A stretch of DNA of 64,000 bases from Blastocatellia bacterium (GTDB lineage Bacteria; Acidobacteriota; Blastocatellia; UBA7656). This document shows, piece by piece, positions 28,966 through 64,000 of the stretch; position 1 is the first letter of the stretch; each line of letters opens with the position of its first letter. The stretch is taken from NCBI GenBank assembly GCA_963765495.1, contig CAVXWP010000002.1, positions 541,476 through 605,475 on the forward strand, written 5' to 3'. Both the position numbers and the translations under genes were made by a program. The notes beneath the pieces are model-generated. The model was not told where the DNA came from and did no database searches. It saw only the letters and a list, made by a program, of their open reading frames with translations.

Positions 28966-30019
28966 AAACGAAAGCACCTCCGTTTCGAGAAATGTGTCAC
29001 TTCGGAACTAACTCCAAAGCAGTTGCCCTAAAGAACAAAGATGTTATGTAAAATGGGAGAGATTTTCAATTTGAAACAACAGCCAATCCTCATAAAAATA
29101 GAGCTGATGCTGCATTATCCATACAAAGAATTTCAGAGTAACAATGAGAGCCTAACACCGAGATAACCGGCCCGCTGTGGTCGGAGGGATAATGAATCGC
29201 TGGCACGCGGGTCCGGTTGATTGAGCGGTTAGGCGGTCCCTTGCCTGTTTCATTTCTTGCGCTTGGCTGACCCTGATCCTCCTATTTTCACTCTCACTTT
29301 CTGAGACAGCTTTTCCTGTCATTGCCAAGGAAGCAGCTTGATGTGCAAGCTTTGTCCTTCCCATTCAGGCTTCTCTACCCCTTGCCTCAACAGGTGGTTG
29401 TGCTGCGAAGGTATCTTTTCGAGGCAGCATTTTCATTGAGCCAGAGTGAATAATCCTTTGGAAGAAACATCCTATGAAGGAACAAGAGAAGAGAGAAGCG
29501 AGCAAGAGGCTCTCCTCGCTATGACTCGCCTGAACTGGTTTTCGTAGCGTTGCTTGTTGAGTCGTTTCCCTTTCATCGGTGATCTAACGCCTAACGCCGA
29601 GATAACCGGCGCGCTGTGGTCGGAGGGATAATGAGGCGTTGGAATGCGGGTCCGGTTGATGGACCAGTTAGGCGCATTCCACCTTGAAGGTTCGGTAAAG
29701 ATACCACTGTCGAAATGCCAAGCCGCGCCAACAGATAGCTTCGACTCAACCGGAATTTATCGGGTAGCGCGGCGCAGTGATTGTGTCAGTACACTTTGTA
29801 GACATGTAGTCTGATTGCTTGGTTGACGATCAGTGTAGCTCATTATCACGGATCGCTTCCCTGTGCGCTTAACGCAGGCATCAGCGGCCCGCTGTGGTGA
29901 AAGGGAAAATGAGGAGTTGGCAAGCGGGTCCGCTGAATGCCTCAGTTAGGCCCGACTCTGAGTCTGCATCGCTATGCGTGTTCACAGGTATGTGTTCATA
30001 ACCACTTCTTACTGTAACG

Positions 30020-30529
30020 TCAAACTCCTGTGACATCTGATAGCACTGTTGGTCGCCCGTCACCTTTCATTTCCACTATGCTTAAACTTCCATCCGTTTC
30101 AAGTACTACTGCTTCGACCTCCTCTTCTCCTTTTATGCCTTGACTGCGGATCGCTTGAAGTATCTCCCCTTCGTTCACTCGCTCCGCTTTCATCGCACTC
30201 CTAAGAAATACTCCTCGATGAAATAGTAACTTCGGCTCTGACTTGACCAACTTGCTTATTGTCTTTGAACGAATTGAAAGCCAGGTGATTATGAATTGAA
30301 GAAATATCAACAAGGAAAGAGCCAGCAATCCTTCTGCAAGTGGAGTATTCTTGGAGAGAATGATTGTGGCTAAAATTGACCCCAAGGCAACTGTCACTAC
30401 GAAGTCAAAGGCATTCATTTTAGAAAGAGTTCGTTTGCCAGAAATGCGGAGTAATAGGATAAGAGTAGGATAGGTGCAGATGGTGGCAACAGCAATTCGT
30501 GCCAACCCAGACCAGCTAGTGAAGAACAT
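30020..30529 (-). CDS. Cassette: DUF421 (YetF-like) membrane protein
   Basis: LRISGKRTLSKMNAFDFVVTVALGS...AVVLETDGSLS. Confidence 0.9.
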   Translation of the reverse strand: MFFTSWSGLARIAVATICTYPTLILLLRISGKRTLSKMNAFDFVVTVALGSILATIILSKNTPLAEGLLALSLLIFLQFIITWLSIRSKTISKLVKSEPKLLFHRGVFLRSAMKAERVNEGEILQAIRSQGIKGEEEVEAVVLETDGSLSIVEMKGDGRPTVLSDVTGV

Positions 30530-32012
30530 ATCAACTCCCCGAGTAAATTGAACAAGCGTCTTGAGAGATTATACATGACAGGAAACATTTTGGGCTTAAC
30601 GCCGGAGATAACCGGCCCGCTGTGGCCCCCGATGCCATTGAGAAGGTGGCAAGCGCGTCCGGTTCATGGACCTGTTAGGCGCATTCTACCTTGCAGGTTC
30701 ATTACAGTTGGGCTTGTCTCACATCAAGCCGCGCTGATAGTTTGCTTCCCGTTGACCAATAAATCACAAATAGCGCGGCGCGGTGATTGTGTCAATACTG
30801 TTGGCAGACAGGTGATCTGATTGCTCCGTTTACGATCAGTGTCGCTCATTTTCACGGATGGCTTTCCTGTGCGCCTAACACCGAGATAACCGGCCCGCTG
30901 TGGGCTCAGGGATAACGAGAAGTTGGTTTGCGGGTCCGGTTGATCGACTTGTTAGGCGGCTCCCCTTGCTGATTTATCTCTTCGCCTTCGCTCGTTTTCA
31001 TCTTCCAATCCTCTTCCTCCCTTCTCTTTGCAGTTTCTTCCTGACTGCTTAAAAGCTGTTTGCCTGGTCGAAAGCTTCCTTCCCAAGCAGGTCTGCTTTG
31101 GCCAAGGCTTATCAGGCAAACTGGCTTGAAGAGGCTCTTTGGCAAATAACCCAGAGACAGAGCATAGCTGAAAGCACTGCATTGTAGAAGTGTGAGCCTG
31201 ATGAAGGCGAGAAGATTGATCGTTCTCGGCAGTGACTCCATAACAGGTCTTTTTGGCATCGCTTGATGAGCCGTTTCCTCTCTATCGATATTCTGACGCC
31301 TAACGCCGGAGATAACCGGCGCGCTGTGGCCTGCAATGCAAGCGAGACATTGGTATGCGCGTCCGGTTGATGGACCAGTTAGGCGCATTCCACCTTGTAG
31401 GTTCAATAGAGTTACTCGTTCCCCTCTGCCAAGGCGCGCCCAGTGTTGATTTGCTTTTCAATCAGCAAATATAGGAGGGCGCGGCGGACTGATTGTGTCA
31501 GCACTGTTGGCAGGCAATTAGTCTGATTGCTTCATAGACGAGTAGTATGCCTCTTTTTCACGGATGGCTTTCCTGTGCGCTTAACGCCGGAGATAACCGG
31601 CGCGCTGTGGCCCCCGATGCCATCCAGAAGGTGGTATGCGCGTCCGGTTGATCGACCAGTTAGGCGCGTTCTGATTCGCAAGTATGTCACAGATAATTGC
31701 CTTCGTAATAGCCGCGCTGGCCCACTTTGCCTTTTAGCGAGGCTTTGACCTATCCTATTAAAGAAGCGCGGCGAGGTGTGAGGCTGACTCGACAGACGAA
31801 GAGAGGTGATCGCTGGTTGCAATCTGAGGGCCAGTGAGAGTCAAACAGCACAGCTTGAAGGCAAGTATTGTCGGCTGCGATCTAAACGACCAGTGTGATT
31901 CACTCTCATCAACCAACCTCCTACGCGCTTAACGACGAGTTCAGCGGCGCGCCGGTAGCTGATGGAACGCGAGCAGTTGGAATGCGCGTCCGCTGGAATG
32001 AGCAGTTAGGCT

Positions 32013-33496
32013 CAATACCTGTCAAATAAGCCACGAGACGGCATTTATGGCATACTTTCGAGTTGATAGAAACGAAAGTTGTCAAGGAGCCGCCTCGCTT
32101 GAGTTACAAAATACGCCATATTACCGATGAACGAAAGTTCTGTGATCATCTCTCTATTGATGCCATCTCTGATGCCGTCTCTATTGAATTAATCCAAGAG
32201 GTTCTTGATCTCCACAATGCCTCTCACAAACGACATCGCAAACTCACTATGAGCGCTGTCGTGCTCATTATCATCGCTATGAATCTGTTTTCACATTTCT
32301 CTATTGGACATGTCGTGCGGAGAGTCTTTCAGGGTTTGCGTTTCATCTGGCCTGATCCTGACTTTCCTCCTCCTAAACACAATGCAATATCTTATCGTCG
32401 TTACCAGTTGGGGCCTCGTCCTTTAGTCTCATTGTTTCATCGTGTTGCACAACCTATGGCAACAGATGAAACTCGTGGCGCTTTTGCATTTGGACTGCGA
32501 TTAATGGCCCTTGACGGCTCTATTGAAGAAGCCCCGGACACTCCGGAAAATGATGCTGCTTTTGGGCGGTTGGCTTCTGATCGCGGGAAGTGTTGCTTCG
32601 TGCAAATTCAGGCTGTCTACCTTGTAGAATGTGGCACTCATGCCATTATTGATGCAGGATTTTGGCCTGCAAAAAGCAGTGAACGAGTTGGAGGTTTTCG
32701 CCTGCTAAGAAGCCTGGGAAAAGGGATGCTTTTGATGTGGGATAGAGGCTTTCACTCCTATGATATGGTAGTTGCGACACTTGAGCGAGGGTCTCAATGT
32801 CTTGGTAGATTGCCTGACAATGTGAAACCGGAACACCTTTGCACGCTAGAAGATGGAACGTGGTTAGGCTATATCAGACCAACACAAAAAGGACGGCGAA
32901 ATAAAGAAGACAAACAGTTGGTTCGGATAATCTCTTACACTTTTACAGACCCGACCCAAGCAGGATACCAGAAGAGATACCGCATAGTCACAACACTATT
33001 GGATGAAAGGAAGTATCCGGCCAAAGAGTTGGTGTGTTTGTATCACGAGCGATGGGAAATCGAGATAGTCATAGATGAGATAGATACACATCAACGACTA
33101 GCAGGAAGGCCATTGAGAAGCCTAAAACCAGAGGGAGTCATACAAGAGTTATACGCATTATTGATAGCGCATTATGCAGTAAGAAAACTGATACACGAAG
33201 CAGCAAATGAGGCAGAAGTAGACCCGGATCGGATAAGTTTTGTAGGAGCATTGAGGATAATCCAAGAAGCAATACCAGAATTCCAAATGGTAGAAAAGGA
33301 GCAAAAGGAGCAATTATACAAGAGGCTATTGAGAGATATAGGAGAGCAAAGGTTACCAGAAAGGCGAGCCAGATCGAATCCGCGAGTAGTGAAGAGAAAG
33401 ATGAGTGGGTTCAATCTGAAGCGACCACAGCATTACAACTGGCCCAAGCCACAGCTACGATTTTGTGATGCTATTTTGCTTATTTGACAGGTATTG
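32013..33496 (+). mobile_element. IS4-family insertion sequence inserted at an attC boundary
   Basis: Perfect 19-bp IR caatacctgtcaaataagc; 10-bp target duplication cagttaggct (32003-32012, 33497-33506). Confidence 0.93.
32063..33487 (+). CDS. IS4-family transposase
   Basis: GLRLMALDGS, LLMWDRGF, LYHERWEIE (YREK motif), RSNPRVVKRK. Confidence 0.92.
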   Translation: MIETKVVKEPPRLSYKIRHITDERKFCDHLSIDAISDAVSIELIQEVLDLHNASHKRHRKLTMSAVVLIIIAMNLFSHFSIGHVVRRVFQGLRFIWPDPDFPPPKHNAISYRRYQLGPRPLVSLFHRVAQPMATDETRGAFAFGLRLMALDGSIEEAPDTPENDAAFGRLASDRGKCCFVQIQAVYLVECGTHAIIDAGFWPAKSSERVGGFRLLRSLGKGMLLMWDRGFHSYDMVVATLERGSQCLGRLPDNVKPEHLCTLEDGTWLGYIRPTQKGRRNKEDKQLVRIISYTFTDPTQAGYQKRYRIVTTLLDERKYPAKELVCLYHERWEIEIVIDEIDTHQRLAGRPLRSLKPEGVIQELYALLIAHYAVRKLIHEAANEAEVDPDRISFVGALRIIQEAIPEFQMVEKEQKEQLYKRLLRDIGEQRLPERRARSNPRVVKRKMSGFNLKRPQHYNWPKPQLRFCDAILLI

Positions 33497-33499
33497 CAG

Positions 33500-33739
33500 T
33501 TAGGCTGCCTCCAAAACCTTCTTGGCTACGTCTTTTCCGGCCGTTGGTGGAGGCAAAGGTCTTCCATCTCTTTTCAATAAATCAATCCATTCATCCACAA
33601 TCTGACATAGTTCTGCAAATACCTGCGCTTCATCGTTTCCATGACAACAGGGACCTATGATTCCTGGGCATTGCCCCACAAAACAATTGTCTTCATCTGA
33701 CCATTCAACAATCTTGATATAGCGGGCGCTTTCTTTCAT
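33500..33739 (-). CDS. hicB: Cassette: HicB-like antitoxin
   Basis: IVEWSDEDNCFVGQCPG...HG...DEWI...DGRPLPPP. Confidence 0.8.
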   Translation of the reverse strand: MKESARYIKIVEWSDEDNCFVGQCPGIIGPCCHGNDEAQVFAELCQIVDEWIDLLKRDGRPLPPPTAGKDVAKKVLEAA

Positions 33740-33930
33740 TGCTGTGCCTCTTGAATCTTTTTTTTCACCTCACGTTCCTGATAAGGTTTTGCATCATCGC
33801 CAAGCTGACCAGAAACTGTAAGACGAACACCTTTTGGATGCTCATAATTTCTATGACTGCCTTTACCACCTCGATTGACAAACCCTGCTCTTTCCAAATC
33901 GCCGATCAATTCTCTGATTTTACGAGGCAT
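33736..33930 (-). CDS. hicA: Cassette: HicA toxin
   Basis: LERAGFVNRGGKGSHRNYEHP...DDAKPYQ. Confidence 0.88.
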   Translation of the reverse strand: MPRKIRELIGDLERAGFVNRGGKGSHRNYEHPKGVRLTVSGQLGDDAKPYQEREVKKKIQEAQQ

Positions 33931-34290
33931 AATCGCGTCTATGCTCTTGCAAATCCTTTCTTTCCATCACGGATATTTTTATCAACATTGCTAAACCGCT
34001 AACCCAGCCAAAACAAAGAGCAAGCTATTCTCTAACCCTGTTATGGTGACAAAGAAATACTCGCATTGTCAATCGTCCTTCTGGTTCAATTCTGGCGGCT
34101 GGTGAGCGAGCGAGCCTAACGACGAGTTCAGCGGCGCGCTGGTAGCAGAGGGATACTGAGTAGTTGGAATGCGCGTCCGCTGGAATGAGCAGTTAGGCGC
34201 GGCCTCAGCTACTTCCATCTCGCCTGAAAAACAAAGTCTTTGATGCATCTGGTTTAAGCGGCAACATTGTGTGATAGATGGGTCTCTCCA

Positions 34291-34959
34291 CTACAAAGTC
34301 TCAGGATAAAGTATCGTCGCCATTTTATCTACTCCCAAGCAAGTCAGAAAAATTTTGTCCTTCAAATCAATGATGTACTCTATGGCTAACGGACAGTACT
34401 CGCCTACTTCAAGATTCCCTATTCGCGCTTGATTTCGAGCATTCACAAACCCTCGATTATGGATATGGATGTTTCGTATCGCCTTAGCTCGATCAAGTTC
34501 ATTTGGAGATGTCTTTGCTGCTATGCATATTCGCGCAAACGGTATGTGAAACCGCTGTTCAAATACGCGATCAGCAATATCATCTATTCGCTGGTTGTTA
34601 ATCAATCTTGTGACTTGATCCCTTATCAATTGTTCCGCATCGCCCTCGGATAATGCCACCAAACTCGGTCTTGCGATAGAGATCGAAACAAGAATGTCTT
34701 CTATGTATGCTTCAAATTTTGTCATTAAGAAGATAAAAAGCACATTGGGAGTCGTATCCCTCCCTAGCCTCAAATACTCTTCGCCCTGTTTCCCAAGTTC
34801 TTGTATCTGCGCTGGATCATCAGTAGCCTTTATTTTTGCAATGAGTTCGTCCATAGAAGCCTTTCCAGCCCGGCTCACTATGCTGGCTAATAGAAATGAT
34901 TGCTCCAGATCATTATTGAAGCTTTGAAATTCCTTAGTTCTCGGTCCAAATTGCTCCAT
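34291..34959 (-). CDS. Cassette: putative HEPN-domain protein
   Basis: FEAYIED helix and RNIHIH (RxxxxH) motif. Confidence 0.6.
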   Translation of the reverse strand: MEQFGPRTKEFQSFNNDLEQSFLLASIVSRAGKASMDELIAKIKATDDPAQIQELGKQGEEYLRLGRDTTPNVLFIFLMTKFEAYIEDILVSISIARPSLVALSEGDAEQLIRDQVTRLINNQRIDDIADRVFEQRFHIPFARICIAAKTSPNELDRAKAIRNIHIHNRGFVNARNQARIGNLEVGEYCPLAIEYIIDLKDKIFLTCLGVDKMATILYPETL

Positions 34960-35089
34960 ATTTCACGTTTACTCCTTAATGCTGAAATTGAACTGTGGGT
35001 GCCAACTTAACTTCCAAGTAAAAGACCGAAGCTCAATAGGATTATACGCAAACTGACTTGAGATTCAAAAAATAAAGAGTCAGCTAGGC

Positions 35090-36295
35090 CTGAAGGATGG
35101 ACACATTTTATAAAGCAGCCTCCAAGTTGAGTTTCGTTTGAGGAGAAAGATGCTCAAACAAACTTTTATCCAATTTGAGCAAGCTGACCATCGCACTCAC
35201 CAGGCTCAGATTCCAGCCTTGTTTGCGCCGCAACGCCACTCGTCGCAGCAATCCAAAAGCTCCCTTCGCTCCTCGCACCAGCAATTTCATCCCCAGCACG
35301 ACGACGATCATCAAGGCGATTGCAAACAGCGCGAACATCCTTGACCACGCCTGCACCGCTTCGATGCGGGCTTGCGAAAAGCCCAACTCCCATTTCACGT
35401 CACGAAATCCTTGCTCACAGCCGAAGCGTCTGGCGTATTCCTCAGCCGGATGCTTTCCACGATGCCTGCGGTTAGAGAGCAGATACCAAATCTCCCACTT
35501 GCCTTCTCGGTTTCGTGCCCGGCTCATCGTCACAAAGAGTCGGTGCGGCGACGACTCGCAATACTGCACTCGGCCAAAATTGCGTTGTCGGGCATTGCTG
35601 CAAAACCTCATAGTCTTGAGATTGCGCCACACTCCTTGAAAGAAGATTTTGGTGCTGTTTTTGACCCGGATGATGTATTCAACCCCCAAGTCTTCAAACA
35701 ATTGCGCCAACTTCACATCGGCAAAGCCGCGATCTGCTGTAACGCGCAGACGGCGACGGCTCAGACGCTTCTTGAAGCCGCCAATGACACGCTTGATGAC
35801 CGCCATTTCATAACGCCGCATACGTCCTTTCAAGACCTTGGCCGAATAGGCCCGCCAATAAATCGGCAAGGCGCGCCCGCCTGTCACAAGCGAGACAACC
35901 AGCAAATGATGGTCGCCTTCAATCGTCCAATCAATGGCCAATCGCAGTTTGCCGCTTCTAGGCAACTGCTTGATGGCTTGCAAGAAGACCGCCTCGGCGA
36001 GGTCGTTTGGCGACAATCGCTGATTATGAAGCAAGCGCGAGAGGCGCTTAACAGCGGCTTCCTGATTGCCAAATTGGCGTGCCAGTTGCGCCTGATTGCC
36101 AGTCTGTTGTTCAATGATGGCGGCGACGAAATCAATAATGGCTTTGCGTTGATGACCGTGCGCCCAAGGAAGCAGCGCAGTGATATAATCAGTCAAACGA
36201 GTAGCGGAAGATTCTTTGTTTGTCATAAAACAAATCTTCCACAAGTGCATAACTTGTCGCTACTCGTTCACTTACAATATGTGTCCATCCTTCAG
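35090..36295 (-). mobile_element. IS4-family (IS10-like) insertion sequence
   Basis: 17-bp IR ctgaaggatggacacat; 9-bp target duplication cagctaggc (35081-35089, 36296-36304). Confidence 0.92.
35108..36250 (-). CDS. IS4-family transposase
   Basis: LAIDWT, GRALPIYW, ADRGF, YARRFGCEQGFRDVK. Confidence 0.9.
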   Translation of the reverse strand: MHLWKICFMTNKESSATRLTDYITALLPWAHGHQRKAIIDFVAAIIEQQTGNQAQLARQFGNQEAAVKRLSRLLHNQRLSPNDLAEAVFLQAIKQLPRSGKLRLAIDWTIEGDHHLLVVSLVTGGRALPIYWRAYSAKVLKGRMRRYEMAVIKRVIGGFKKRLSRRRLRVTADRGFADVKLAQLFEDLGVEYIIRVKNSTKIFFQGVWRNLKTMRFCSNARQRNFGRVQYCESSPHRLFVTMSRARNREGKWEIWYLLSNRRHRGKHPAEEYARRFGCEQGFRDVKWELGFSQARIEAVQAWSRMFALFAIALMIVVVLGMKLLVRGAKGAFGLLRRVALRRKQGWNLSLVSAMVSLLKLDKSLFEHLSPQTKLNLEAAL

Positions 36296-36933
36296 CAGCT
36301 AGGCTAAAGAAATTTTCACAATGGTAATTCAAACTTTAGAATTGCAGGGTGACAGCGAGAGCCTAACGACGAGTTCAGCGGCGCGCCAGTAGCCTCGGGA
36401 TAATGAATCGTTGGAATGCGCGTCCGCTGGAATGAGCAGTTAGGCGGATTCCTTCGCCGCTTCATCTTCTTCCTGTTTGCTTACCATATTCCTCCATTTC
36501 TCATCTCCTGTTTCGGCACAGTTTTCCTATTTCTCCATGTTGCTACCTTCTTTTCTGTGGCAGGTTTTCCTGGCTATCGTCGAGGAAGCCTATTGATGTG
36601 CCAGTTCGTCATTGCCAATCAGGTTTGTTCTGCCACATTCCTCAACAGGCAATTCAACTGCGAAGGAATCATTGAGATGCAGGTTAATCTTTGAGCAGTG
36701 CTGAAATGTCTGGATCGGGAGAAAGCAGTATCGGGTAAAGAGGGATAAGAAGCGAGCAAGTAGCTGTCCTCACGATATCTGACCTGATGAAGTTTACGCA
36801 TCACTGCTTGTTGAGTAGTGTCGCTTTTGAGATTGACGCCTAACGACGAATTCAGCGGCGCGCTGTGGCCTTCGATGCAAGCGAGGAGGTGGAAAGCGCG
36901 TCCGCTGGAATGAGCAGTTAGGCCGGTTTCATT

Positions 36934-37326
36934 TTATGCTGACGGCCACCAGTTAAATTCGATCCCAAGTGAATTCAATATCCTCACTGTCTCTGTTTTG
37001 TTTCTTTCAATAAATTTATCGTCATCGCCTGATCGTATTCCTATTTCTTGAAGTCCTACAATCTTCCCGTAGGGCCAAGCCTTTTCTGGTAGGCTGTCCA
37101 AGTAATTGGCGAGTTTGTCGATAGAAACCATTTGGCTTCCAGTTTGAGAGCCACCCCGTGCCGTTACAGAGACACCATCTCTTTGAACTACGAGAAAAGG
37201 ATTTTGCCAATCCCTTGCGTCGTGTATGGAGGTGTAATCTACGTTTTTACAAGCAGGTAGATAGACAGTTATAACCAGTATCAGAAGGGCCAGTCCGGTA
37301 TTGATAGTTGTAGGCTTATTCATCAT
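36934..37326 (-). CDS. Cassette: putative lipoprotein
   Basis: Hydrophobic N-terminus ending LPAC. Confidence 0.7.
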   Translation of the reverse strand: MMNKPTTINTGLALLILVITVYLPACKNVDYTSIHDARDWQNPFLVVQRDGVSVTARGGSQTGSQMVSIDKLANYLDSLPEKAWPYGKIVGLQEIGIRSGDDDKFIERNKTETVRILNSLGIEFNWWPSA

Positions 37327-37389
37327 ATTTCCCCACGCGAATTTCAATGAAGTAGTTCAATTGCGAAATAGATGCACATAAGAGTCTCT

Positions 37390-37418
37390 ATTCTATCTTG
37401 GGCAAGGGATTTATTCAA
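37390..37418 (-). promoter_or_regulatory. Sigma70-like promoter in shared cassette leader
   Basis: TTGAAT-N17-TAGAAT. Confidence 0.65.
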
Positions 37419-37641
37419 TTTGAGCAGATTTAGTCCTATGAGGTGATGAAATGCCTTCTGATTTGTCCATACTAAGAATCGTCGGGAGAGCGAGCGAGCC
37501 TAACGCCGAATTCAGCGGCGCGCTGGTAGCTGATGGAACACGAGACGGTGGAATGCGCGTCCGCTGGAATGAGCAGTTAGGCTGAGTCTCGCTTTATCTA
37601 TGCCGATGCCTGTTCAGGCGCTTCCTGTCTCCTTGTTCCCT

Positions 37642-37998
37642 TTATTTCGTATAGCTATCTGCTCCTAGTAAGTGTATTGATACATACGGCTCGTTTCCTA
37701 CTACCCAACTGTCGTGTGGCTCTGCTGGTACATAGAATATCATTCCTGGCTTAAGCTCATACACTTTACCATCCCTCATTGCTGCTGTTGCCTCTCCACT
37801 CACGACCATTCCCACATGTTCTACTTCGCAGTACTGCCTCCCCACTTGGGGGCCAACATGCTCTGACCACTTCCAACTTGGCTCATAAGTAGCTTTGCCT
37901 ATAGTCATATTTGCAATTTTGATTATTTCAAACTTGCCCTTCTCGAAGTACCGAGTTTCGTCAGGGGAATCAAAGCATTTAAGGATAACATCAAGCAT
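37642..37998 (-). CDS. Cassette: cupin-domain protein
   Basis: PSWKWSEHV...CEVEHVGMVVSG...PHDSWVVGNEPYV. Confidence 0.88.
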   Translation of the reverse strand: MLDVILKCFDSPDETRYFEKGKFEIIKIANMTIGKATYEPSWKWSEHVGPQVGRQYCEVEHVGMVVSGEATAAMRDGKVYELKPGMIFYVPAEPHDSWVVGNEPYVSIHLLGADSYTK

Positions 37999-38170
37999 AT
38001 TTCTCCTCTAAGTCGAAAGCAAGATCAGAAACAGAGAATAAAGCAACGTCAATGGAACATCAAATAAGAAATTACCCATGCTGCTGCGAGAGCCTAACGC
38101 CGAGTTCAGCGGCGCGCCGGTAGCTGGTGGAACACAAAACGTTGGCACGCGCGTCCGCTGGAATGAGCAG

Positions 38171-38563
38171 TTAGGCTTGGTCCAATATTTTGACATCATA
38201 TGCAAGTATATTACTGTCCACAGTTACCAGAGTCATATCCTTTTCCAATGCCTGGCATATCAAGATTCTATCAAACGGATCACGATGAATCATTGGGAGG
38301 GTGGCCAGTCTTGCTACACTCCCTTCCTTCAATGGCAGACTCTCAATCTTATGTTCGTCCCTTTGCTTTGGTATGTAACTGCCCGGAGGTTCAGGCAATG
38401 GCAGCTTCCCTATTTGATACTTGATAATTATTTCCCATAATGAAACAACGCTCAAAAACACATCATTCTCAGGGCTACGGATGGCTTCCAGAAAGGAATC
38501 TGGAAGCCGAAAATCCCCAATGATGTACCAGAGGAAAATGTGTGTATCGAGAAGGAGTTTCAT
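38171..38563 (-). CDS. vapC: Cassette: VapC PIN toxin (duplicate of 21417-21809)
   Basis: Identical translation and attC. Confidence 0.92.
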   Translation of the reverse strand: MKLLLDTHIFLWYIIGDFRLPDSFLEAIRSPENDVFLSVVSLWEIIIKYQIGKLPLPEPPGSYIPKQRDEHKIESLPLKEGSVARLATLPMIHRDPFDRILICQALEKDMTLVTVDSNILAYDVKILDQA

Positions 38564-38799
38564 CTATCTTCAAATTCTTTGATAATAGCCTCCGGCAGTG
38601 GGGCGTCGAAGTCATCAGGCACTATGAAATTCCCCGCAGCTAAAGCAAAAGGGCGAGGAGAACGAGAGGCTGAAATGATGGGTTTGATTTCAGCAACGGG
38701 CTTACCGGCCCTAATAATAATAATACTCTCGCCAGCCTCGACACGTTCGATATAGGTCAAGAGGTTGCGCTTCATTTCATCTATGGTAATTGGAAGCAT
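38560..38799 (-). CDS. Cassette: Phd/YefM antitoxin (duplicate)
   Basis: Identical to 21806-22045. Confidence 0.9.
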   Translation of the reverse strand: MLPITIDEMKRNLLTYIERVEAGESIIIIRAGKPVAEIKPIISASRSPRPFALAAGNFIVPDDFDAPLPEAIIKEFEDR

Positions 38800-38964
38800 A
38801 GGACAATTATCAAGCAGGTTTCTCATAAAATCAAACAAGGGTATGCCGAGGTCGATGCGGAGCCTAACGACGAATTCAGCGGCGCGCTAGTAGCTAAGGG
38901 ATAATGATGAGGTGGCACGCGCGTCCGCTGGAATGAGCAGTTAGGCTGAGTCCAATGACTCTCT

Positions 38965-39414: not shown

Positions 39415-39471
39415 AATTGCCTACTAACGGCGAGATGTCTAACTTCCAAATAGCTTCTCTTAAGAGTTCTG

Positions 39472-39500
39472 ATTGTATGTAGAATCAGGTTGATATTCAA
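39472..39500 (-). promoter_or_regulatory. Sigma70-like promoter in shared cassette leader
   Basis: TTGAAT-N17-TACAAT. Confidence 0.65.
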
Positions 39501-54427: not shown

Positions 54428-54832
54428 CTATGTTGATCTGGTACTTCGGAGTTTATAGCTCTCTTTCTCTTTGATAATTGTAAAGAGCTTCTTTCTTCTT
54501 ATCCAAGCCCAATTCCTTTTGGCCCTATTCCTCCACCACGTATCTAGGCTCGTCTTTTCTGGTTTTACACAGAACGTAACCTTCGCGACAAACTTGTCGT
54601 CTTTCCATTCACCAATCTCTATTTGGTGGATTATATATTCTTGAATTCTCATTTCCGCAATTGCTTGGGGATGAGTGAAATAATGGAACCAAAAGGTCAG
54701 GAGGATACCCACAATGGGTGGCTGATAATCGTCAGCAATGAAGCGAGCAGGCAGAATAGGCGTATTGCCTGGAAACTCTTCCATGCATATTTCCCCCTCA
54801 TCGAGACAGCCTTTTAGAAATTTAGTAATCAA
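54428..54832 (-). CDS. Cassette: hypothetical protein
   Basis: ORF fills the cassette. Confidence 0.6.
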   Translation of the reverse strand: MITKFLKGCLDEGEICMEEFPGNTPILPARFIADDYQPPIVGILLTFWFHYFTHPQAIAEMRIQEYIIHQIEIGEWKDDKFVAKVTFCVKPEKTSLDTWWRNRAKRNWAWIRRKKLFTIIKEKESYKLRSTRST

Positions 54833-57347
54833 GCATCAACTCCCGTTGTCGATGGCTCCTCTGCGTCTAACGACGGAGATAACCGGCGCGCTGTGGGCCT
54901 CGATGCAAATGAGTAGATGGCATGCGCGTCCGGTTGATGGACCAGTTAGGCGCATTCCACCTTGAAGGTTCGGTAAAGATGCCACTGCCCATCTGGCAAG
55001 GCGCGCCAGGAAATCGCATCCTCACAATCAACATTCATCGAAAGGCGCGGCGGACTGATTGTGTCAGCATTGCTTGTATGCAGGCACTCTTCGTTGCACC
55101 CTATGTGATCAGTGTGGCTCATCCTAACGAACAACTTCCCAGCGCGCTTAACGCCGGAGATAACCGGCCCGCTGTGGGCTCAGGGATAATGAAGGGTTGG
55201 AATGCGGGTCCGGTTGATGGACCAGTTAGGCGCATTCCACCTTGTAGGTTCAATAGAGTTACTCGTTCCCCTCTGCCAAGGCGCGCCCAGTGTTGATTTG
55301 CTTTTCAATCAGCAAATATAGGAGGGCGCGGCGGACTGATTGTGTCAGCACTGTTGGCAGGCAATTAGTCTGATTGCTTCATAGACGAGTAGTATGCCTC
55401 TTTTTCACGGATGGCTTTCCTGTGCGCTTAACGCCGGGGATCAGCGGCCCGCGGTGGGTAGAGGGATAATGAATCGGTGGTAGGCGGGTCCGCTGAATCC
55501 CCCTGTTAGGCGCGTCCCATCTTGTCGGTTCAATTCTGCATATTCTTCGAGCAAGCCGCGCACATATATCGTTTCCAGATATCGAGCATACATCGGGTTG
55601 CGCGGCGGAGTGATTCTAACAGCATTGTTTGTAGACAGGTATTCTTCTCTGCATCTTTGGCGATCAATGTGGTAGGTTTTCTCGGACCGCTTCCTGCGCG
55701 CTTAACGCAGGCATCAGCGGCCCGCTGGTAGCAGCGGGATAAAAGCACGGTGGCACGCGGGTCCGCTGAATGCCACAGTTAGGCGCGTTCAATCTTGTCG
55801 GTTCGATTCTGCATATATTCTTCGAGCAAGCCGCGCTAGGAGTTCGTTGCTTTTCACCGAGCAGCTTTCGAGTTGCGCGGCGGACTCCTTGTAAAAGGAT
55901 CGCTGGTAGACATGTATTCTTTGCTGCGTGATTGACGATCAGTGTGCCTCATTGTCACGGATCACTTCCTGCGCGCTTAACGACGGAGATAACCGGCCCG
56001 CTGTGGGCTCAGGGATAATGAAGGGTTGGAATGCGGGTCCGGTTGATGGACCAGTTAGGCGCATTCCACCTTGAAGGTTCGGTAAAGATACCACTGTCGA
56101 AATGCCAAGCCGCGCCAACAGATAGCTTCGACTCAACCGGAATTTATCGGGTAGCGCGGCGCAGTGATTGTGTCAGTACACTTTGTAGACATGTAGTCTG
56201 ATTGCTTGGTTGACGATCAGTGTAGCTCATTATCACGGATCGCTTCCCTGTGCGCTTAACGACGAGATAACCGGCCCGCCGTGGGCAAAGGGATAACGAG
56301 AGGTTGGCATGCGGGTCCGGTTGATCGACCTGTTAGGCCCGCCTTTGTCTTTGGCCGCGCTCGGCGCTTATTTCGAGCAAATCAGTCTGCCTCGATTGGC
56401 GCGGCCCCAACCTTAACTCCTTGCTTGGTGTTTTGACCTTTTCGTCATCATGGTCTTGTTGTCCGAAATACCTTTGCATCCAATTCGTTGCTGTTGGTCA
56501 GGTACTTTCCCGCGAGCCTAACGCCGAGATAACCGGCGCGCTGTGGTCGGAGGGATAATGAGGCGTTGGAATGCGGGTCCGGTTGATGGACCAGTTAGGC
56601 GCATTCCACCTTGAAGGTTCGGTAAAGATACCACTGTCGAAATGCCAAGCCGCGCCAACAGATAGCTTCGACTCAACCGGGATTTATCGGGTAGCGCGGC
56701 GCAGTGATTGTGTCAGTACACTTTGTAGACATGTAGTCTGATTGCTTGGTTGACGATCAGTGTAGCTCATTATCACGGATCGCTTCCCTGTGCGCTTAAC
56801 GTCGGGGATCAGCGGCCCGCTGTGGGCAAAGGGATAATGAATAGCTGGCATGCGGGTCCGCTGTATCCCCCTGTTAGGCGTCACTCCTCGCTGTTTCATC
56901 TCTTCGCCTTTGCTCGTTTTCATCCTCCGATCCTCATCTTGTCTTCTCCCAACAGCTTCTTACTCATTGCTTGAAAGCTGATTCAATTGCCGATAGCTTC
57001 TTTCCCAACCAGGTCTGCCTTGGCCAATGATCATCAGGCAATCTCGATAGGACTGGGTCTGTGCCAGTAAGCCCAGAGAAGAGCATAGCTGAAGGCACTC
57101 GAATGGAGAAGTGTGAGTCTGATGAAGGCGAGAAGATTGATCGTCCCCGGCAGTGATTTCAAAGCAGGTCTTTTGGAATTGATAGCTGAGTCGTTTCCTC
57201 TCCACCGATCTTCTGACGCCTAACGCCCCGGTTGAACGGCCCGCTGTGGCCTCCCCTTCAAGCGAGTGGTTGGATTGCGGGTCCGGTCGAACCGGTTGTT
57301 AGACGGCGTCTTTTCCTGCGAGCATTCTTTGGTCTTTTGTTTTTCTC

Positions 57348-57713
57348 TCATTGCTCAAACCATTTTGCCTGCTCTTTCGGCGACCTCAAAATACCGAAGA
57401 GCGATTCTATAGACTGGTCAGTGAGTATTGTAAACCAAACTGACTTGAGCTCTATTGAGTGTACTTCTATTGTTTGTCCATCTGCTCCTTTCAACGATGA
57501 TAGAAGCTCATCAAACCCCTCAGTCCTCGATACGTCCCTCCCTTTGTTTATTGCTGCGCGCACAGAGCAGACGCGAGCAACGTCAGCGATGAGAAGTGGA
57601 CTTGTCTTGAAGTATCGGTATTCACCTTGTCTCTTAATCCTGTCAAGACAATCCAAGACAAGTGGGTCGCTTTGTTTAGATTCGAGAAGTTGTCTCAATC
57701 GGTCATCCATCAC
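57348..57713 (-). CDS. Cassette: hypothetical protein
   Basis: ORF fills the cassette. Confidence 0.65.
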   Translation of the reverse strand: MMDDRLRQLLESKQSDPLVLDCLDRIKRQGEYRYFKTSPLLIADVARVCSVRAAINKGRDVSRTEGFDELLSSLKGADGQTIEVHSIELKSVWFTILTDQSIESLFGILRSPKEQAKWFEQ

Positions 57714-58365
57714 TTGAAAGTCACCATGACGTCAGCTGTCTAACGCCGAGTTCAGCGGCGCGCCGGTAGCTGGTGGAACGCGAGTAGTTGGAAAGCGCGT
57801 CCGCTGGAATGAGCAGTTAGGCGGCTTCCTTCGCCGATTCATCCTTCTTGAGCTTTCCTGATCATAACCCTCCTATTCTTATCTCTCGTTTCTGCACAGT
57901 TTCTCTTCTTCCTCACAGGTCATTTCCTCTCTCGTGCGACAGGTGTTGCTCTCTTTCGTCGGGGAAGCTTTTTGATCTGCCTACTTCCTCTTTTCCAAAC
58001 TCGCCTCTCTGATGCTTGTCTCAACAGGCAATCGGCTGAACAGGCTTCTTCGCCAGACAGGTTTATATGAGCAATGCTGAAAGACTGCTTTGGGAGAAAG
58101 AAGTGTCAGATGAAGGAGCAGGGATGAGAGACACAGCAGAGTAGTATGGGGATAAAGAGGCAAGAGAATCGAGCAAGTAGGGGTCCTGGCGATGACTTGC
58201 CTGGACAGGTTTCAACAGCAAGGCAAACTGAGTCGTCTCCCTTTCGTCGGTGATCTGACGCCTAACGACGAGTTCAGCGGCGCGCCGGTAGCTGATGGAA
58301 CGCGAGCAGTTGGCATGCGCGTCCGCTGGAATGAGCAGTTAGGCTTGGCCCCTTGTCGATGCAAG

Positions 58366-59103
58366 TCATTTGCCCCGCGTCAAACCATAAAGTGAGAGAA
58401 GTCCAGCCGCAATTTCAGCACGAGTTTTATCTCTCAATCCTGTATCATCAGACTCCATACTTTCGAGTATCTGAACAGACATTCCAACAGCATTGATTCT
58501 TTCAAGGATGTTGACATAATCTCTAGCTTGTTCCATCGTGGACTTATAAATTAGCAAAAAAGTTGCTGCAATAAACTCTACAATTATTCCAGCTAAAGTG
58601 ACGACAATTGATGGTTGAAAATTATCAGGAGATTTATAGACTTGAATAGTTCCATAGCCAATAACGATGAAACCAGCAGTAATTACCAGTAGGCATCGAA
58701 AGAAAATCCAACGGATTTGAGCCAGATTCCGATTTAAGTAGATTTCGAGTTTGATTCTTGCAAGCTCCCAAGCTGCCTGTGGCTCATTTGGGTGTTCTCT
58801 AACACGTTCTTCTACTCTCTTTATCACTTCCTGGTGCTCGCTTGCAATTAGGACACGCTGATAGCCTGCAATTCCAATGATGAGCATTGCTCCAATAACA
58901 CCGAGGATTCCGGCCACTATATTCAAGAGTGGTTTTTGATTCGGAAGATTCTCTGCCACTATTGCACAAACTATGGCGAGGCCAATAGAAGAAGCGGCCA
59001 GGGTAAAAAGGAGGCGCAGTCTACGTCCGCCATGCACAATTGCGCCAAACAAGCCTTCTGCGACCCAAGACGAAATCTCAAGAATCATAGGTGTGGACCT
59101 CAT
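58366..59103 (-). CDS. Cassette: four-TM membrane protein, C-terminal half resembling TRADD-N-associated 2TM domains
   Basis: YLNRNLAQIRWIF...GIIVEFIAATFLLIYKSTMEQARDY; family call from memory. Confidence 0.65.
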   Translation of the reverse strand: MRSTPMILEISSWVAEGLFGAIVHGGRRLRLLFTLAASSIGLAIVCAIVAENLPNQKPLLNIVAGILGVIGAMLIIGIAGYQRVLIASEHQEVIKRVEERVREHPNEPQAAWELARIKLEIYLNRNLAQIRWIFFRCLLVITAGFIVIGYGTIQVYKSPDNFQPSIVVTLAGIIVEFIAATFLLIYKSTMEQARDYVNILERINAVGMSVQILESMESDDTGLRDKTRAEIAAGLLSLYGLTRGK

Positions 59104-59141
59104 TAACGCACAATTACGAGAAGATTAAGAGAAGAGTGCAG

Positions 59142-59170
59142 ATTCTATACGGAATCAAGCAGTTATTCAA
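59142..59170 (-). promoter_or_regulatory. Sigma70-like promoter in shared cassette leader
   Basis: TTGAAT-N17-TAGAAT. Confidence 0.65.
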
Positions 59171-62167
59171 TTTGAATCTATCCCGAATTTGAGAAAAATG
59201 AAATGTTTGTTGGTTTGTCCAAACCAAGAAATATCGGATTACCGAGCGAGCCTAACGACGAATTCAGCGGCGCGCTGGCGGCAAAGGGATAGTGAGAAGG
59301 TGGAATGCGCGTCCGCTGGAATGAGCAGTTAGGCGGCTTCCTTCGCCCCTCCATCCTCCTTCCTCTTGGCCGATCATTACCTCCCATTTCTCTTCTCCTC
59401 TTTCGCCTCTGTTTCTCCTCCTCCCTACTGTTATCCTCTCTTGCGTAATAGGGTTTCTTGCTTGTTGTCGCGGAAGGTTCCTGATCTCCCAGCTTGCCTT
59501 TCCCACACTCTTTTCTCTGCTGGTTGGCTCACCAAACCATTCAACTGCGAAGCTATCTTTGCCAGACAGGTCTATCTTTGAGCAAAGTTGAATAGTTGCT
59601 ATTGGAAAAGGAAATATCCAATAAAGGAGCAGAAATGATCGAATAAGCAGAGGTGCATCTGGTAAAGAGCAATGAGAAGCGAGCAAGTGGATGTCCTGGC
59701 GATGTCTTACCTAATATTGTTTTCGCCTCATTGCTTGGTAAGTCGTTTCGCTTCTGAGAGATTGACGCCTAACGCCGGGGATCAGCGGCCCGCTGTGGCC
59801 GAAGGGATAACGAGAAGCTGGTATGCGGGTCCGTTGAATGCCCATGTTAGGCGCGCCTTTGTCGTTGGCCGCGCTCGGCTTTCTGGGCAATTCAATCAAG
59901 GCATATCGGGAGGCGCGGCCCCAATCTTGACTCGCTGCTTTGTGACTGCGTCGTTTAGTTACTATGACATTGTTCACTCTTTTTTCCGCCTCTGTGTCGT
60001 TGCTGTTGGTCAGGAAATTTCCCCGCGAGCCTAACGCGGAGATAACCGGCGCGCTGTGGGCTCAGGGATAATGAAGGGTTGGAATGCGGGTCCGGTTGAT
60101 GGACCAGTTAGGCGCATTCCACCTTGAAGGTTCGGTAAAGATGCCTCTGTCGAAATGCCAAGCCGCGCCAGCAGATAGCTTCGACTCAACCAGGATTTAT
60201 CGGGTAGCGCGGCGCAGTGATTGTGTCAGTACACTTTGTAGACATGTAGTCTGATTGCTTGGTTGACGACCAGTATGCCTCATTGTCACGGATGGCTTTC
60301 CTGTGCGCTTAACGCCGGAGATAACCGGCGCGCTGTGGCCCCCGATGCCATCCAGAAGGTGGTATGCGCGTCCGGTTGATCGACCAGTTAGGCGCGTTCT
60401 GATTCGCAAGTATGTCACAGATAATTGCCTTCGTAATAGCCGCGCTGGCCCACTTTGCCTTTTAGCGAGGCTTTGACCTATCCTATTAAAGAAGCGCGGC
60501 GAGGTGTGAGGCTGACTCGACAGACGAAGAGAGGTGATCGCTGGTTGCAATCTGAGGGCCAGTGAGAGTCAAACAGCACAGCTTGAAGGCAAGTATTGTC
60601 GGCTGCGATCTAAACGACCAGTGTGATTCACTCTCATCAACCAACCTCCTACGCGCTTAACGCCGAGTTCAGCGGCGCGCTGTGGGCGAAGGGATAATGA
60701 ACAGTTGGCAAGCGCGTCCGCTGGAATGAGCAGTTAGGCGAGTGCTCTCCGTAATTCATCCTTCTTGCTTCTGCCATTTCCATCTTTGCGACTCATTGCC
60801 TCTGGTCGAAGTATTCTGGCGGGTAGAAGCTGGGCTTGCATTGAGAGCAGAGTGTTGTAGACGAGGCAATCGGGGGTTGGGTGATTGGATGCTTTGGTGC
60901 GTGGGTAGCAGATTGACAGGGGAGCAAGTGCATTGTCCTGGCGATGTCTCGCCTGCTCTTGATATTGCGGCTTTACCTGATGAGTCGTTTCAATTCAACG
61001 GATTCACTGACGCCTAACGTCCCGGTTGACCGGCCCGCTGTGGCCTCCACTTCATGCGAATAGTTGGATTGCGGGTCCGGTCGAACCGATGGTTAGGCGG
61101 CTCCCCTCGCTGTTTTACCTCTTCGCCTTCTCTCATTTTCATCTCTCTTTTCTATCCTCCTCTCCCATCTCCTTCTTTCTCCTTGCTTGCTGAGTGTCGA
61201 TTTGCAGAAACCATCCTTCCCTGACAGGTCTGCTTTGGCCATTTCTGCGCAGGCAATTTCGCTTGAAATGGCTCTGTGGAAAACAGCCCTGAGACTGAGA
61301 ATATCTGAAAGCAGAGATTTGATGAAGAATGATTCTGATGAGGAATTGCAGCGAGAAGTAGCATTGATAGGTGAACGGATCCATTCTCCTCGCGGTGTCT
61401 TTGCTGTCAGGTCTTTAAGCGATTGCTTGCCGAGTCGTTTCCATTTCACCGTTGTTCTGACGCCTAACGCCGGAGATAACCGGCGCGCTGTGGCCCCCGA
61501 TGCCATCCAGAAGGTGGTATGCGCGTCCGGTTGATCGACCAGTTAGGCGCGTTCTGATTCGCAAGTATGTCACAGATAATTGCCTTCGTAATAGCCGCGC
61601 TGGCCCACTTTGCCTTTTAGCGAGGCTTTGACCTATCCTATTAAAGAAGCGCGGCGGAGTGTGAGGCTGACTCGACAGACGAAGAAAGGTGATCGCTGGT
61701 TGCAATCCGAGGGCCAGTGAGAGTCAAACAGCACAATTTGTAGGCAGGTAATATTGGCTGCGTTCTTGACGGCCAATGTGATTGATTTCCATCGACCAAC
61801 TCCCAGCGCACTTAACGCCGGGGATCAGCGGCCCGCTGTGGCCGAAGGGATAACGAGAAGCTGGTATGCGGGTCCGTTGAATGCCCATGTTAGGCGCGCC
61901 TTTGTCGTTGGCCGCGCTCGGCTTTCTGGGCAATTCAATCAAGGCATATCGGGAGGCGCGGCCCCAATCTTGACTCGCTGCTTTGTGACTGCGTCGTTTA
62001 GTTACTATGACATTGTTCACTCTTTTTTCCGCCTCTGTGTCGTTGCTGTTGGTCAGGAAATTTCCCCGCGAGCCTAACGACGAGTTCAGCGGCGCGCCGG
62101 TAGCTGGTGGAACGCGAGCGGTTGGCACGCGCGTCCGCTGGAATGAGCAGTTAGGCTGAGTCCAGTT

Positions 62168-62410
62168 CTAAGTGCTTCCAAGTTCTCTTATTCTTTGTTT
62201 TTCTTCTTCTGCTTTTCGTTTGAAGTAAAGCGATAGCCATGAAGGGGCTTTATCAAGGTATAATGCAAACAATGTGACAACAGGCGTTGCGACAGATAGC
62301 ATCAAAAAACACGCAATAAATAAATCACGAGTCCGTAATCCGTATATTGATAAAAGAATTACACCCATGATCAAGAGAGATGCATTAAAGACGAAGCTAA
62401 TAATTTTCAT
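62168..62410 (-). CDS. Cassette: small two-TM membrane protein
   Basis: AAGGAG RBS; two hydrophobic segments and a charged tail. Confidence 0.7.
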   Translation of the reverse strand: MKIISFVFNASLLIMGVILLSIYGLRTRDLFIACFLMLSVATPVVTLFALYLDKAPSWLSLYFKRKAEEEKQRIRELGST

Positions 62411-63179
62411 AAAAGAAGTCTCCTTGAATGAGGTTAATGGAAAACGCAATAAGAATTCAAACGAAGAATGAGAATAGGAAGACCTTTAGGAAGATGTGAG
62501 ATTGAGTTAGGCAGACAAATTTGCCTGAGTAATCAATGGCGAGGGCTTTTGAGGTATTGCAAGCACAAAGGAAAAGAAAGGACTATCAGATTCAATAATC
62601 CAAGTCTTTCCGGGTGACCGAGTGAGCCTAACGACGAGTTCAGCGGCGCGCAGGTAGCTGCGGGATAATGAGAGGGTGGCATGCGCGTCCGCTGGAATGA
62701 GCAGTTAGGCGGCCTCTTAATTGTTTCATTTCCTTGAGCGTTGCTGACCTCCTTCTTCCAATACTCCTCTCCTGTTTCGGCGCAGTTCTCCTCTCTCTCT
62801 GTTGCTACCTTCTCCTGTGATAGGTCTTCCTGTTGTTGTCGGGAAAGTTTTTTGATGTGCTAAGTTCATCATTGCCAATCAGGTTTGTACTGCCACATTC
62901 CTCAACAAGCAATTGGGTGCGAATGTATCTTTGAGAGGCAGGATAATCTTTGAGAAGTGCTGAAATGTCAGCATCGGGAGAAAGCAGTATTGGGTAAAGA
63001 GGAAATAGAAGCGGGCAAGTAGCTGTCCTCACGATGACACGCATGAATCTGTTTTCGCATCATCGCTTTATGAACCGTCCCCCTTTCGTCGGTGATCTGA
63101 CGCCTAACGCCGAGTTCAGCGGCGCGCCGGTGGTAAAGGAAATCAGATTTTGGAAATGCGCGTCCGTTGGAATGAGCAG

Positions 63180-63570
63180 TTAGGCCGCAGCCAGCGCACT
63201 GACCATCACGTAATACCCATCAGGATCTCGGAGTGCGAATTCTCTGGTGCCAGTATTGGGGTTCATATGCGGGTTCCTCTTCCAGTTCAGCGACAAGGGC
63301 ACGTGCTCGATGCAGCGTCTCATCGAAGTCGTCCACACGAAAGAACAAGAGTAGTCCATTGCCAGGCTGAGCATGATCGGGACTGGTCAGTGGTGGATGT
63401 TCGTGGGCTCCCCACTGGTGAAGGCAAAGCAAGACTGTTGCATCGGTGTCTAGGATTTGCCCGAAGTCCTGATGAGCGGGATTGGTTTCCGGTTGTCCAA
63501 ACAGCGACTGATACCACTTGAAGCTTCGAGTAACATCAGCAACGCCTATGATTGTCCAGGTACGCTTCAT
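63180..63570 (-). pseudogene. Cassette: VOC/glyoxalase family protein with frameshift near 63270
   Basis: IIGVADVTRSFKWYQSLFG...GNGLLLFFRVDDFD...EEEP continues in another frame as HMNPNTGTREFALRDPDGYYV. Confidence 0.8.
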
Positions 63571-63619
63571 AGCTCCCTCCTGCGGCCAAACTGAGATTTA
63601 GTAGTCATAAAGAAAATTG

Positions 63620-63648
63620 ATTCTACGAAGAATCGGTTTGATATTCAA
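63620..63648 (-). promoter_or_regulatory. Sigma70-like promoter in shared cassette leader
   Basis: TTGAAT-N17-TAGAAT. Confidence 0.65.
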
Positions 63649-64000
63649 TTGAAGCGGCCAGAGTAATCTGGAAATGGAAATTCGAAGAGTCTCAGTTTTC
63701 TCCAAATCGAGAAGCAACGGGAGGTCGAGCGAGCCTAACGCCGGGAATCAGCGGCCCGCTGTGGGCGAAGGGATAACGAGACGCTGGTATGCGGGTCCGT
63801 TGAATGCCCATGTTAGGCGCGCCTTTGTCGTTGGCCGCGCTCGGCTTTCTGGGCAATTCAATCAAGGCATATCGGGAGGCGCGGCCCGAATCTTCGACTC
63901 GCCCCTTTGTGACTGCGTCGTTTAGTTACTATGACATTGTTCACTCTTTTTTCCGCCTCTGTGTCGTTGCTGTTGGTCAGGAAATTTCCCCGCGAGCCTA

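Follow-up and report, generated by a model that had tools for sequence, protein, structure and literature searches.

A family of homologous leaders with a predicted promoter precedes unrelated genes in integron cassettes of a Blastocatellia bacterium

Introduction

Integron cassettes carrying unrelated genes share a homologous leader of ~150 nucleotides (nt) in the genome of a Blastocatellia bacterium (Acidobacteriota; assembly GCA_963765495.1). The leader was recognized in a stretch of 64,000 nt, here termed the window, which corresponds to positions 541476-605475 of contig CAVXWP010000002.1 (C2) and contains a long cassette array on the minus strand. It starts at the crossover point of the attC recombination site, and its most conserved positions form a predicted sigma-70-type promoter. 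On balance it is probably a lineage-specific module, resembling a pseudo-cassette, that would give the genes behind it transcription independent of the integron promoter Pc.

The usual picture of a large chromosomal integron is that of a store of promoterless genes, mostly silent, which are read from a single Pc. We know of no settled account of how their cassettes are built. An initial annotation of the window had proposed that open reading frames (ORFs) were captured into, or exchanged behind, a common template made up of leader and attC.

The leader family in the window

The attC sites of the array (Table 1) were called as GCCTAAC with a GTTA-type core 70-85 nt later; GCCTAAC occurs 80 times on the minus strand of the array, and in 77 cases such a core follows. 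The bottom strands of attC sites fold, with a mean z of -2.52 relative to shuffled sequences (n=40). Five cassettes, c0, c11, c48, c51 and c62, each with attC on both sides, align with one another over ~150 nt with few gaps. In each, the leader starts exactly at the attC crossover point, G|TTAGGC. After the G of the upstream attC the order is TTAGGCTC(G/T)C..CG, then a TTCTTGGTATGGAYAA-like stretch and then a promoter-like site.

When a profile built from four of the leaders was searched against the fifth with nhmmer, near-full-length matches were obtained at E values of 2.9e-13, 8.7e-19, 5.2e-25, 4.3e-17 and 5.3e-10 (c0, c11, c48, c51 and c62, respectively). With the shared TTAGGC removed, the five leaders score 29.1-72.9 bits, whereas 300 dinucleotide shuffles of each reach 9.0 bits at most. 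The pattern TTGAAT-N16-18-TASAAT has exactly four matches, all on the minus strand and each ~85 nt inside its cassette; 0.06 are expected in shuffled sequence, and none of 100 shuffles reaches four. The leaders are AT-rich (GC content 0.34-0.40) and the region is rich in promoter-like hexamers, as would suit a chance or compositional similarity of cassette starts, or their convergence on a promoter consensus. This explanation is refuted by the leave-one-out E values and the shuffle scores; moreover, the leaders share six ordered blocks at fixed spacing over 150 nt, some of them far upstream of the promoter, and it is left with next to no probability. The similarity of the cassette starts claimed in the initial annotation thus stands clear of shuffled AT-rich controls, and the promoter coordinates given there for c0, c11, c48 and c51 are exact, as are the variants in c62 and c53 (Table 1).

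Four further cassettes, c45, c66, c53 and c2, hold diverged, partial or split copies. The c53 leader had been described as containing an insertion sequence (IS), and it is indeed split by an element of this kind, flanked by the 9-bp target duplication GCCTAGCTG. Partial leaders had also been noted near 41330 and 62590. Both are real and both are weaker than the five: the former, in c45, has alignments to the profile that span from positions 1-47 up to positions 1-138 (E 1e-7 to 2e-10; E 1.6e-19 with the iterated genome profile), whilst the latter, in c2, is confined to the leader head. Cassette c2 is duplicated elsewhere on the contig.

Table 1. Positions of the array, leaders and associated genes in the window (aa, amino acids)
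Feature	Position	Strand	Remarks
Integron cassette array	19045..63818	-	77 attC sites (GCCTAAC, ~83 nt, GTTAGGC), 76 delimited cassettes; reaches contig end
Leader of c0	63589..63738	-	Promoter-like site 63620-63648; second core GTTTGGC 63585-63591
ORF of c0	63220..63570	-	116 aa; glyoxalase/bleomycin-resistance superfamily, PF00903, E 2e-5
Leader head of c2, weak and partial	62554..62631	-	First 32 nt only, E 0.004-0.017; iterated profile E 0.0024
Leader of c11	59106..59255	-	Promoter-like site 59142-59170; identical second copy on contig C6
ORF of c11	58366..59103	-	245 aa; CyanoTRADDas_TM two-transmembrane domain, PF20712, E 6e-18
Leader of c45, diverged	41234..41371	-	5' blocks kept, promoter hexamers decayed; before ORF 40820-41176
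Leader of c48	39435..39584	-	Promoter-like site 39472-39500 (TTGAAT-N17-TACAAT); second core GTTAGAC 39437-39443
ORF of c48	38965..39414	-	149 aa; no Pfam family
Leader of c51	37354..37503	-	Promoter-like site 37390-37418
ORF of c51	36934..37347	-	At most 137 aa, start codon uncertain; no Pfam family
Leader of c53, 5' part	36296..36366	-	Match over first 30 nt; ends in one copy of the 9-bp target duplication
IS in c53 leader	35090..36295	-	1206 bp; DDE transposase ORF 35108-36250
Leader of c53, 3' part	35005..35089	-	Promoter-like site 35041-35068 (TTGAAT-N16-TATAAT); second core GTTAAGT 35005-35011; before ORF 34291-34959
Leader of c62	29006..29155	-	Weaker promoter-like site 29041-29069 (TTGAAA-N17-TAACAT); second core GTTAGTT 29006-29012
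ORF of c62	28660..28977	-	105 aa; DnaJ-type CXXCXGXG zinc-finger-like, PF00684, E 4e-7, below gathering score
Leader of c66, diverged, full length	25581..25729	-	ATGGAT-N18-TACAAT; second core GTTGGGC; E 1.1e-9, 75 bits; before ORF 24600-25613

Distribution of the leader

The 7.3-Mb genome contains three integron integrase genes scoring above the TIGR02249 cut-off (477-487 bits), each beside an array, together with 255 attC-like matches in 24 clusters that range from lone sites up to 83. An iterated leader profile finds 33 matches in the genome at E<0.01, of which 29 have E<1e-4 and 27 are distinct, making the family about six times larger genome-wide than in the window. The search for leaders outside the array, one of the checks proposed in the initial annotation, showed every one of the 29 copies at E<1e-4 to lie within or next to an attC cluster, and none elsewhere in the genome. 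Most of the 33 matches (26) start directly at the end of the attC R' site; the remainder lie at degenerate or lone sites. The family is diverged, with a mean identity of 0.47 in the multiple sequence alignment, and no member stands out as a parent cassette. It is likely to be ancient.

Delimited cassettes number 208 genome-wide. More than half of them (111) belong to three short, amplified families of 52, 44 and 15 members without substantial ORFs, 19 (plus two weak cases) carry the leader, and 76 fall in neither class and are mostly ORF-bearing. About one fifth of the ORF-bearing cassettes in this genome therefore carry the leader, and the starts of several of the 76 resemble still more diverged leaders.

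Beyond this genome, the leader profile gave a single weak, partial match in one of 40 relatives (E 3.5e-4, model positions 81-152) and none in the IntI-flanking loci of 80 genomes of other phyla, attI sides included. The attC type itself has 0-2 pattern matches in each of 52 other genomes of the family, as against 215 here, and none of the 52 provides a close comparator array. A metagenome scan with the promoter-core pattern returned 64 loci, all at or below 20.6 bits, AT-rich and centred on the pattern stretch (the longest covering model positions 17-146); on these features they are taken as chance matches. As far as these searches go, the leader is restricted to one lineage among the genomes covered.

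Unrelated genes behind the leader

The genes that follow the leader have little in common. In an all-against-all BLASTP comparison of 33 downstream proteins only four pairs are similar at E<1e-3, and each is a duplicated cassette. The Pfam assignments also differ, comprising glyoxalase (twice, in proteins not similar by BLASTP), CyanoTRADDas with two transmembrane segments, DnaJ-type zinc finger, TIR, VWA, a beta-lactamase/esterase family, DUF389, DUF6602, SnoaL-like and Sde182 hydrolase-like; many of the proteins match none. The claim that homologous leaders stand before unrelated ORFs is thus upheld. By tblastn, no leaderless paralogues of these genes were found in other cassettes; only duplicates, chromosomal paralogues and a multi-copy transposase (the ORF of the cassette at C2:6689) were recovered.

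In leader cassettes the ORF starts 22-109 nt after the -10 hexamer, three early ORF calls excluded (-84, -29 and +2); in leaderless cassettes the distance between cassette start and ORF is usually 13-120 nt. On other contigs, leader cassettes are found with genes for TIR-domain (L008 13748-14884), VWA (L005 9701-10642) and PF00144 beta-lactamase-family (L013 1093-2409) proteins, and the TIR cassette may carry a defence gene.

Leader anatomy and the predicted promoter

An alignment of 24 leaders gives the consensus TTAGGCTCnCTCGnTnnCCC ... AATTCTTGGTATGGAnAA ... variable ... TTCAATTGAATATCTnnCCTATTCTACnTAGAATCAnnnCTCTTTAGnnnAnCTAnTTnGnnGTTnGGC, and the same blocks are found in 27 sequences. The conserved upstream blocks are TCnCnCG..CCC and TTCTTGGTATGGAnAA, and the promoter-like site consists of TCAATTGAATATC, a 17-nt spacer and TAGAAT. 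Outside the crossover core, the sole invariant column and most of the columns conserved in at least 90% of leaders are T1, A2, A5 and T6 of the -10 hexamer and positions in or next to the -35 hexamer. Such a hierarchy of conserved positions is expected of a sigma-70 promoter, and it is a promoter of this type that the best-kept positions of the leader are predicted to form, in agreement with the initial annotation. The geometry is similarly constrained: among 27 copies, 18 have a -35 beginning at leader position 84-87, 21 have a spacer of 17 nt, and 18 agree with TTGAAT/TAGAAT at no fewer than 10 of the 12 hexamer bases. The hexamers are 16-18 nt apart and lie 5' of an ORF on the same strand.

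The -35 lies within TTCAATTGAA, and the spacer and -10 together form a perfect consensus palindrome, ATTCTACGTAGAAT, with the -10 inside it. A palindrome of this kind suggests a dimeric DNA-binding protein, and it and the upstream blocks may be sites for a regulator.

Conservation continues for ~30 nt past the -10 (CTCTTTAG..CTAnTT..GGAGTTAGG), that is, into the presumed transcript. This might be taken to indicate a cis-acting RNA element, such as a riboswitch, an attenuator or a small RNA target, to which the hexamers are incidental. However, the strongest conservation lies upstream of any transcript that would start at the promoter-like site. RNAalifold finds no consensus pairs in 24 sequences, the folding energies of 27 leaders equal those of shuffled sequences on both strands (z ~0), Rfam 15 has no matches at E<=1 over window positions 18000-64000 (46 kb), and the short upstream ORFs vary in length and frame. 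An RNA element is therefore extremely unlikely. The same folding results were used to reject the leader as a degenerate attC, and the Rfam search to reject it as a known RNA family. A coding role for the upstream ORF was also discarded: the frames that open at the ATG of block B run from 10 to ~50 codons and differ in both length and frame.

At the 3' end of the leader, ~28 nt after the -10, there is a second crossover core resembling GTTAGG(C). GTT lies 28-29 nt downstream of the -10 in 14 leaders out of 27. In a hand count on the 24-leader alignment it occupies the aligned spot in 17, and the full GTTRRRY is present in eight, of which three are GTTAGGC, the commonest core of the array, and one is GTTAGAC (these open 143 and 12 of the 208 cassettes, respectively).

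An attI docking site with its Pc likewise presents a promoter, then a crossover core and then cassette ORFs, and the leader could be envisaged as a copy of one, an integron platform lacking the integrase. Nevertheless, the leader profile has no match in two of the three resident attI regions, and its match in the third, which covers 22 positions (123-144), amounts to -0.5 bits, a value reached by 1 of 300 shuffles. With no significant match in these three regions and none in the 80 IntI-flanking loci of other phyla, an attI identity was rejected. In addition, ordinary exchange between attI and attC does not yield an element that, like the leader, begins at an attC crossover. Descent from attI is thus very unlikely.

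Function and spread of the leader

A promoter module is supported by the way in which conservation is distributed, by the constant geometry, by the position of the leader before ORFs on the same strand and by its restriction to cassettes, and this remains the probable explanation. Most likely, each cassette would be transcribed separately from its leader, without recourse to the Pc of the integron. The fragment lies before unrelated ORFs, carries a predicted promoter and has neither an ORF of its own nor an attC-like fold, as a pseudo-cassette would. Since crossover cores flank it on both sides, it would act like a promoter-bearing pseudo-cassette fused before promoterless cassettes.

The core at its 3' end suggests that recombination there was the source of new ORFs. 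The most economical route would be for a leader to be duplicated and for the integrase to insert arriving cassettes at its second core. Equivalently, a former gene-less promoter cassette may have been fused to its neighbour, the two being joined through loss of an attC. Insertion is favoured over fusion because the junction is precise and shared, and because the leader has no attC-like fold.

Repeated fusion, in which a once-abundant gene-less promoter cassette was joined time and again to the one downstream and the second core is the surviving R', is in our estimation unlikely. Gene-less families are hugely amplified here, as the 111 short cassettes illustrate, and cassettes fused by attC loss have been documented in mobile integrons (PMC8876359, in the part available). 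A possible example is present in the window: cassette c2 contains, on the minus strand, an orphan GCCTAAC core (62506-62512) without an R' partner, and the 11 nt after it, TCAATCTCACA, recur at the start of several cassettes of the short families; this may be the scar of a fusion with attC loss. On the other hand, independent deletions would not yield the same junction in most leaders (14 of 27, as above). The 3' part of the leader lacks an attC-like fold (z ~-0.35, as against -2.5 for 40 real attC sites; no RNAalifold pairs), and the lack of a surviving free leader cassette argues against a current supply.

The template of leader plus attC envisaged in the initial annotation would act as a chassis for cassette genesis, in which the two, contiguous, were joined to captured ORFs and have been inherited together around an exchangeable middle. 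From the G|TTAGGC geometry, the attC of a cassette abuts its own leader in the excised circle, and neither the attC type nor the leader extends beyond this genome in the set searched. Leader distances correlate with those of the cassette's own attC (Mantel r=0.42, p=0.0004) and not with those of the upstream neighbour's attC (r=0.03), but the link is not robust: removal of one near-duplicate pair lowers it to r=0.25 (p=0.057), and restriction to type A sites gives r=-0.11 (p=0.77), in small samples of 16 and 12 leaders. There are at least four attC sequence subtypes. These follow the class of cassette, since type B dominates the largest short family (43 of 52 members) and type A the ORF cassettes. 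Type A, however, is equally common in ORF cassettes that lack the leader (52 of 76) and in those that carry it (14 of 19) and hence is not distinctive of leader cassettes, and no stem forms between the head of a leader and the tail of its own cassette. A chassis of this kind is consequently quite unlikely.

A more elaborate version of the promoter-module explanation holds the leader to be a portable platform for both docking and expression, whose 3' GTTAGG core is a live target of the integrase and whose palindrome and upstream blocks impose a common regulator. We regard this as doubtful. If it were true, promoterless cassettes could insert behind a regulated promoter anywhere in the array or at lone chromosomal sites, and each insertion would pass the leader on to the newcomer. 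The chromosomal integron would then contain distributed mini-platforms, providing a concrete step in the assembly of expressed cassettes.

Several observations weigh against the promoter module and its proposed spread. Generic promoter-like matches are themselves mildly enriched in the region (26, as against 17.0 +/- 4.4 in shuffles). Outside the leaders the palindrome has 13 matches at up to two mismatches where ~16 are expected genome-wide, and hence shows no excess, and no regulon or regulator was found for it. Of 24 leaders, 16 have a degenerate form of the second core, and the core could instead be a motif of the 5' untranslated region (UTR), as GGAG often precedes it. Leaders are more frequent per attC in small or lone clusters (8 per 30) than in large arrays (21 per 225; Fisher p=0.011), and such an excess where there is no Pc is an indirect hint of function; it is weak, as the attC counts include the gene-less cassettes of the large arrays and some duplicates. 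No near-identical leaders with different ORFs were found, the closest being ~0.7 identical by a gap-friendly global measure. The exchange of ORFs would thus be old, and neither route is caught in the act.

Finally, a cassette consisting of a leader followed directly by attC is absent from the genome. The initial annotation had pointed to empty cassettes as a place to look for the leader; none carries it. All 19 delimited leader cassettes hold an ORF of at least 62 aa, and their shortest body is 546 nt, so that none has the form of a gene-less promoter cassette. There is therefore no free promoter cassette at hand as a source.

Comparison with known systems

The works cited in this section were available in part, and the comparisons refer to the parts concerned. 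The closest precedent is qacE-101, a 101-bp promoter-bearing piece of the qacE 5'UTR that is found joined to a number of unrelated class 1 cassettes and has been termed a pseudo-cassette (PMC8876359). In both cases a piece of ~100-150 nt resembling a promoter-bearing 5'UTR precedes unrelated cassettes and is taken as a driver independent of Pc. The leader differs in being represented by ~27 distinct, diverged copies (identity ~0.47) in the chromosomal, sedentary arrays of a single environmental genome, and in having additional conserved blocks, a palindrome that covers the -10 and a second core that is likewise conserved; the two were compared by description.

Dedicated promoters have also been described in the cmlA, qac, qnrVC and toxin-antitoxin cassettes (PMC8876359). 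Like the leader cassettes, those of cmlA, qnrVC and the toxin-antitoxin systems have a long 5'UTR and a sigma-70-like promoter inside the cassette. There, however, the promoter serves a single gene family, whereas here one homologous leader precedes unrelated genes.

Cassettes lacking a gene and showing promoter activity have been reported inside large Vibrio arrays (2024, PMC11014356). They too are non-coding cassette DNA giving promoters within an array, which complicates the model in which expression from Pc is operon-like. Those cassettes are free-standing, with their own attC, and in the text available are not described as a homologous family joined to ORFs, in contrast to the leader, which is a module inside an ORF cassette. 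Amplified families of paralogous non-coding cassettes are likewise found in Vibrio arrays (Boucher et al. 2006, PMC1382264). Both they and the leader are lineage-restricted, amplified non-coding sequences, for which promoter or RNA roles have been suggested. The Vibrio families are conserved over their full length as whole cassettes, whilst homology among leaders ends ~150 nt in, before unrelated ORFs.

Group IIC-attC introns (PMC3001079) are mobile elements associated with attC that similarly bring a promoter to downstream cassettes. The leaders show no intron-like element, fold or Rfam match, and they follow the crossover core instead of lying inside attC. In the full-text literature, to which subscription journals and supplements did not belong, no description was found of a diverged, homologous leader family that has a second core and conserved blocks besides the promoter and is common to dozens of unrelated ORF cassettes of a chromosomal integron.

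Other features of the arrays

The short amplified families begin with TTAAGCGCACAGGAAAGCC.. or TTAAGCGCGCTGGGAGTTGG.. (52 members), TTAGGCGTCAGATCACCG.. (44) and TTAGGCTCGCGGGGAAA.. (15). Examples between 20000 and 62000 of the window are found at 60035-60312, 56522-56799, 61468-61815 and 59773-60034, and others are located on further contigs. A 770-nt cassette occurs twice in the window (38098-38867 and 21344-22113); its two overlapping ORFs of 92 and 130 aa suggest, from their layout, a toxin-antitoxin pair.

Beside the IS in the c53 leader there is a second IS-disrupted cassette, starting at 34119, whose first ~16 nt resemble the leader head. It contains an IS4-type transposase gene (Nterm_IS4 and DDE_Tnp_1) on the opposite strand at 32063-33487 (+).

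A lone leader cassette on another contig (L011 1295-2630; C7:65294-66629) carries the Sde182 hydrolase-like ORF and has attC on its 3' side only. Its 5' side joins ordinary DNA at ..ATACAT|TTAGGC, as is seen after insertion at a secondary site.

The three integrons differ at their integrase end. One (L007 ~2540-2960, contig C3) has an open frame of ~140 codons between intI and the first crossover core. In the other two, the intergenic region between intI and attI is short and contains repeated GTGCGTA-like motifs.

Implications

It seems that, in this bacterium, a ready-made expression module was attached again and again to a variety of captured genes. Should the module be active, numerous distal cassettes, and lone ones too, would be expressed on their own, possibly in a coordinated manner, and the expression modules and coding parts of cassettes would be separately combinable. 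The leader profile would then provide a handle for finding such cassettes and for testing the second core as a recombination site, and would thereby bear on the question of how cassettes are assembled.

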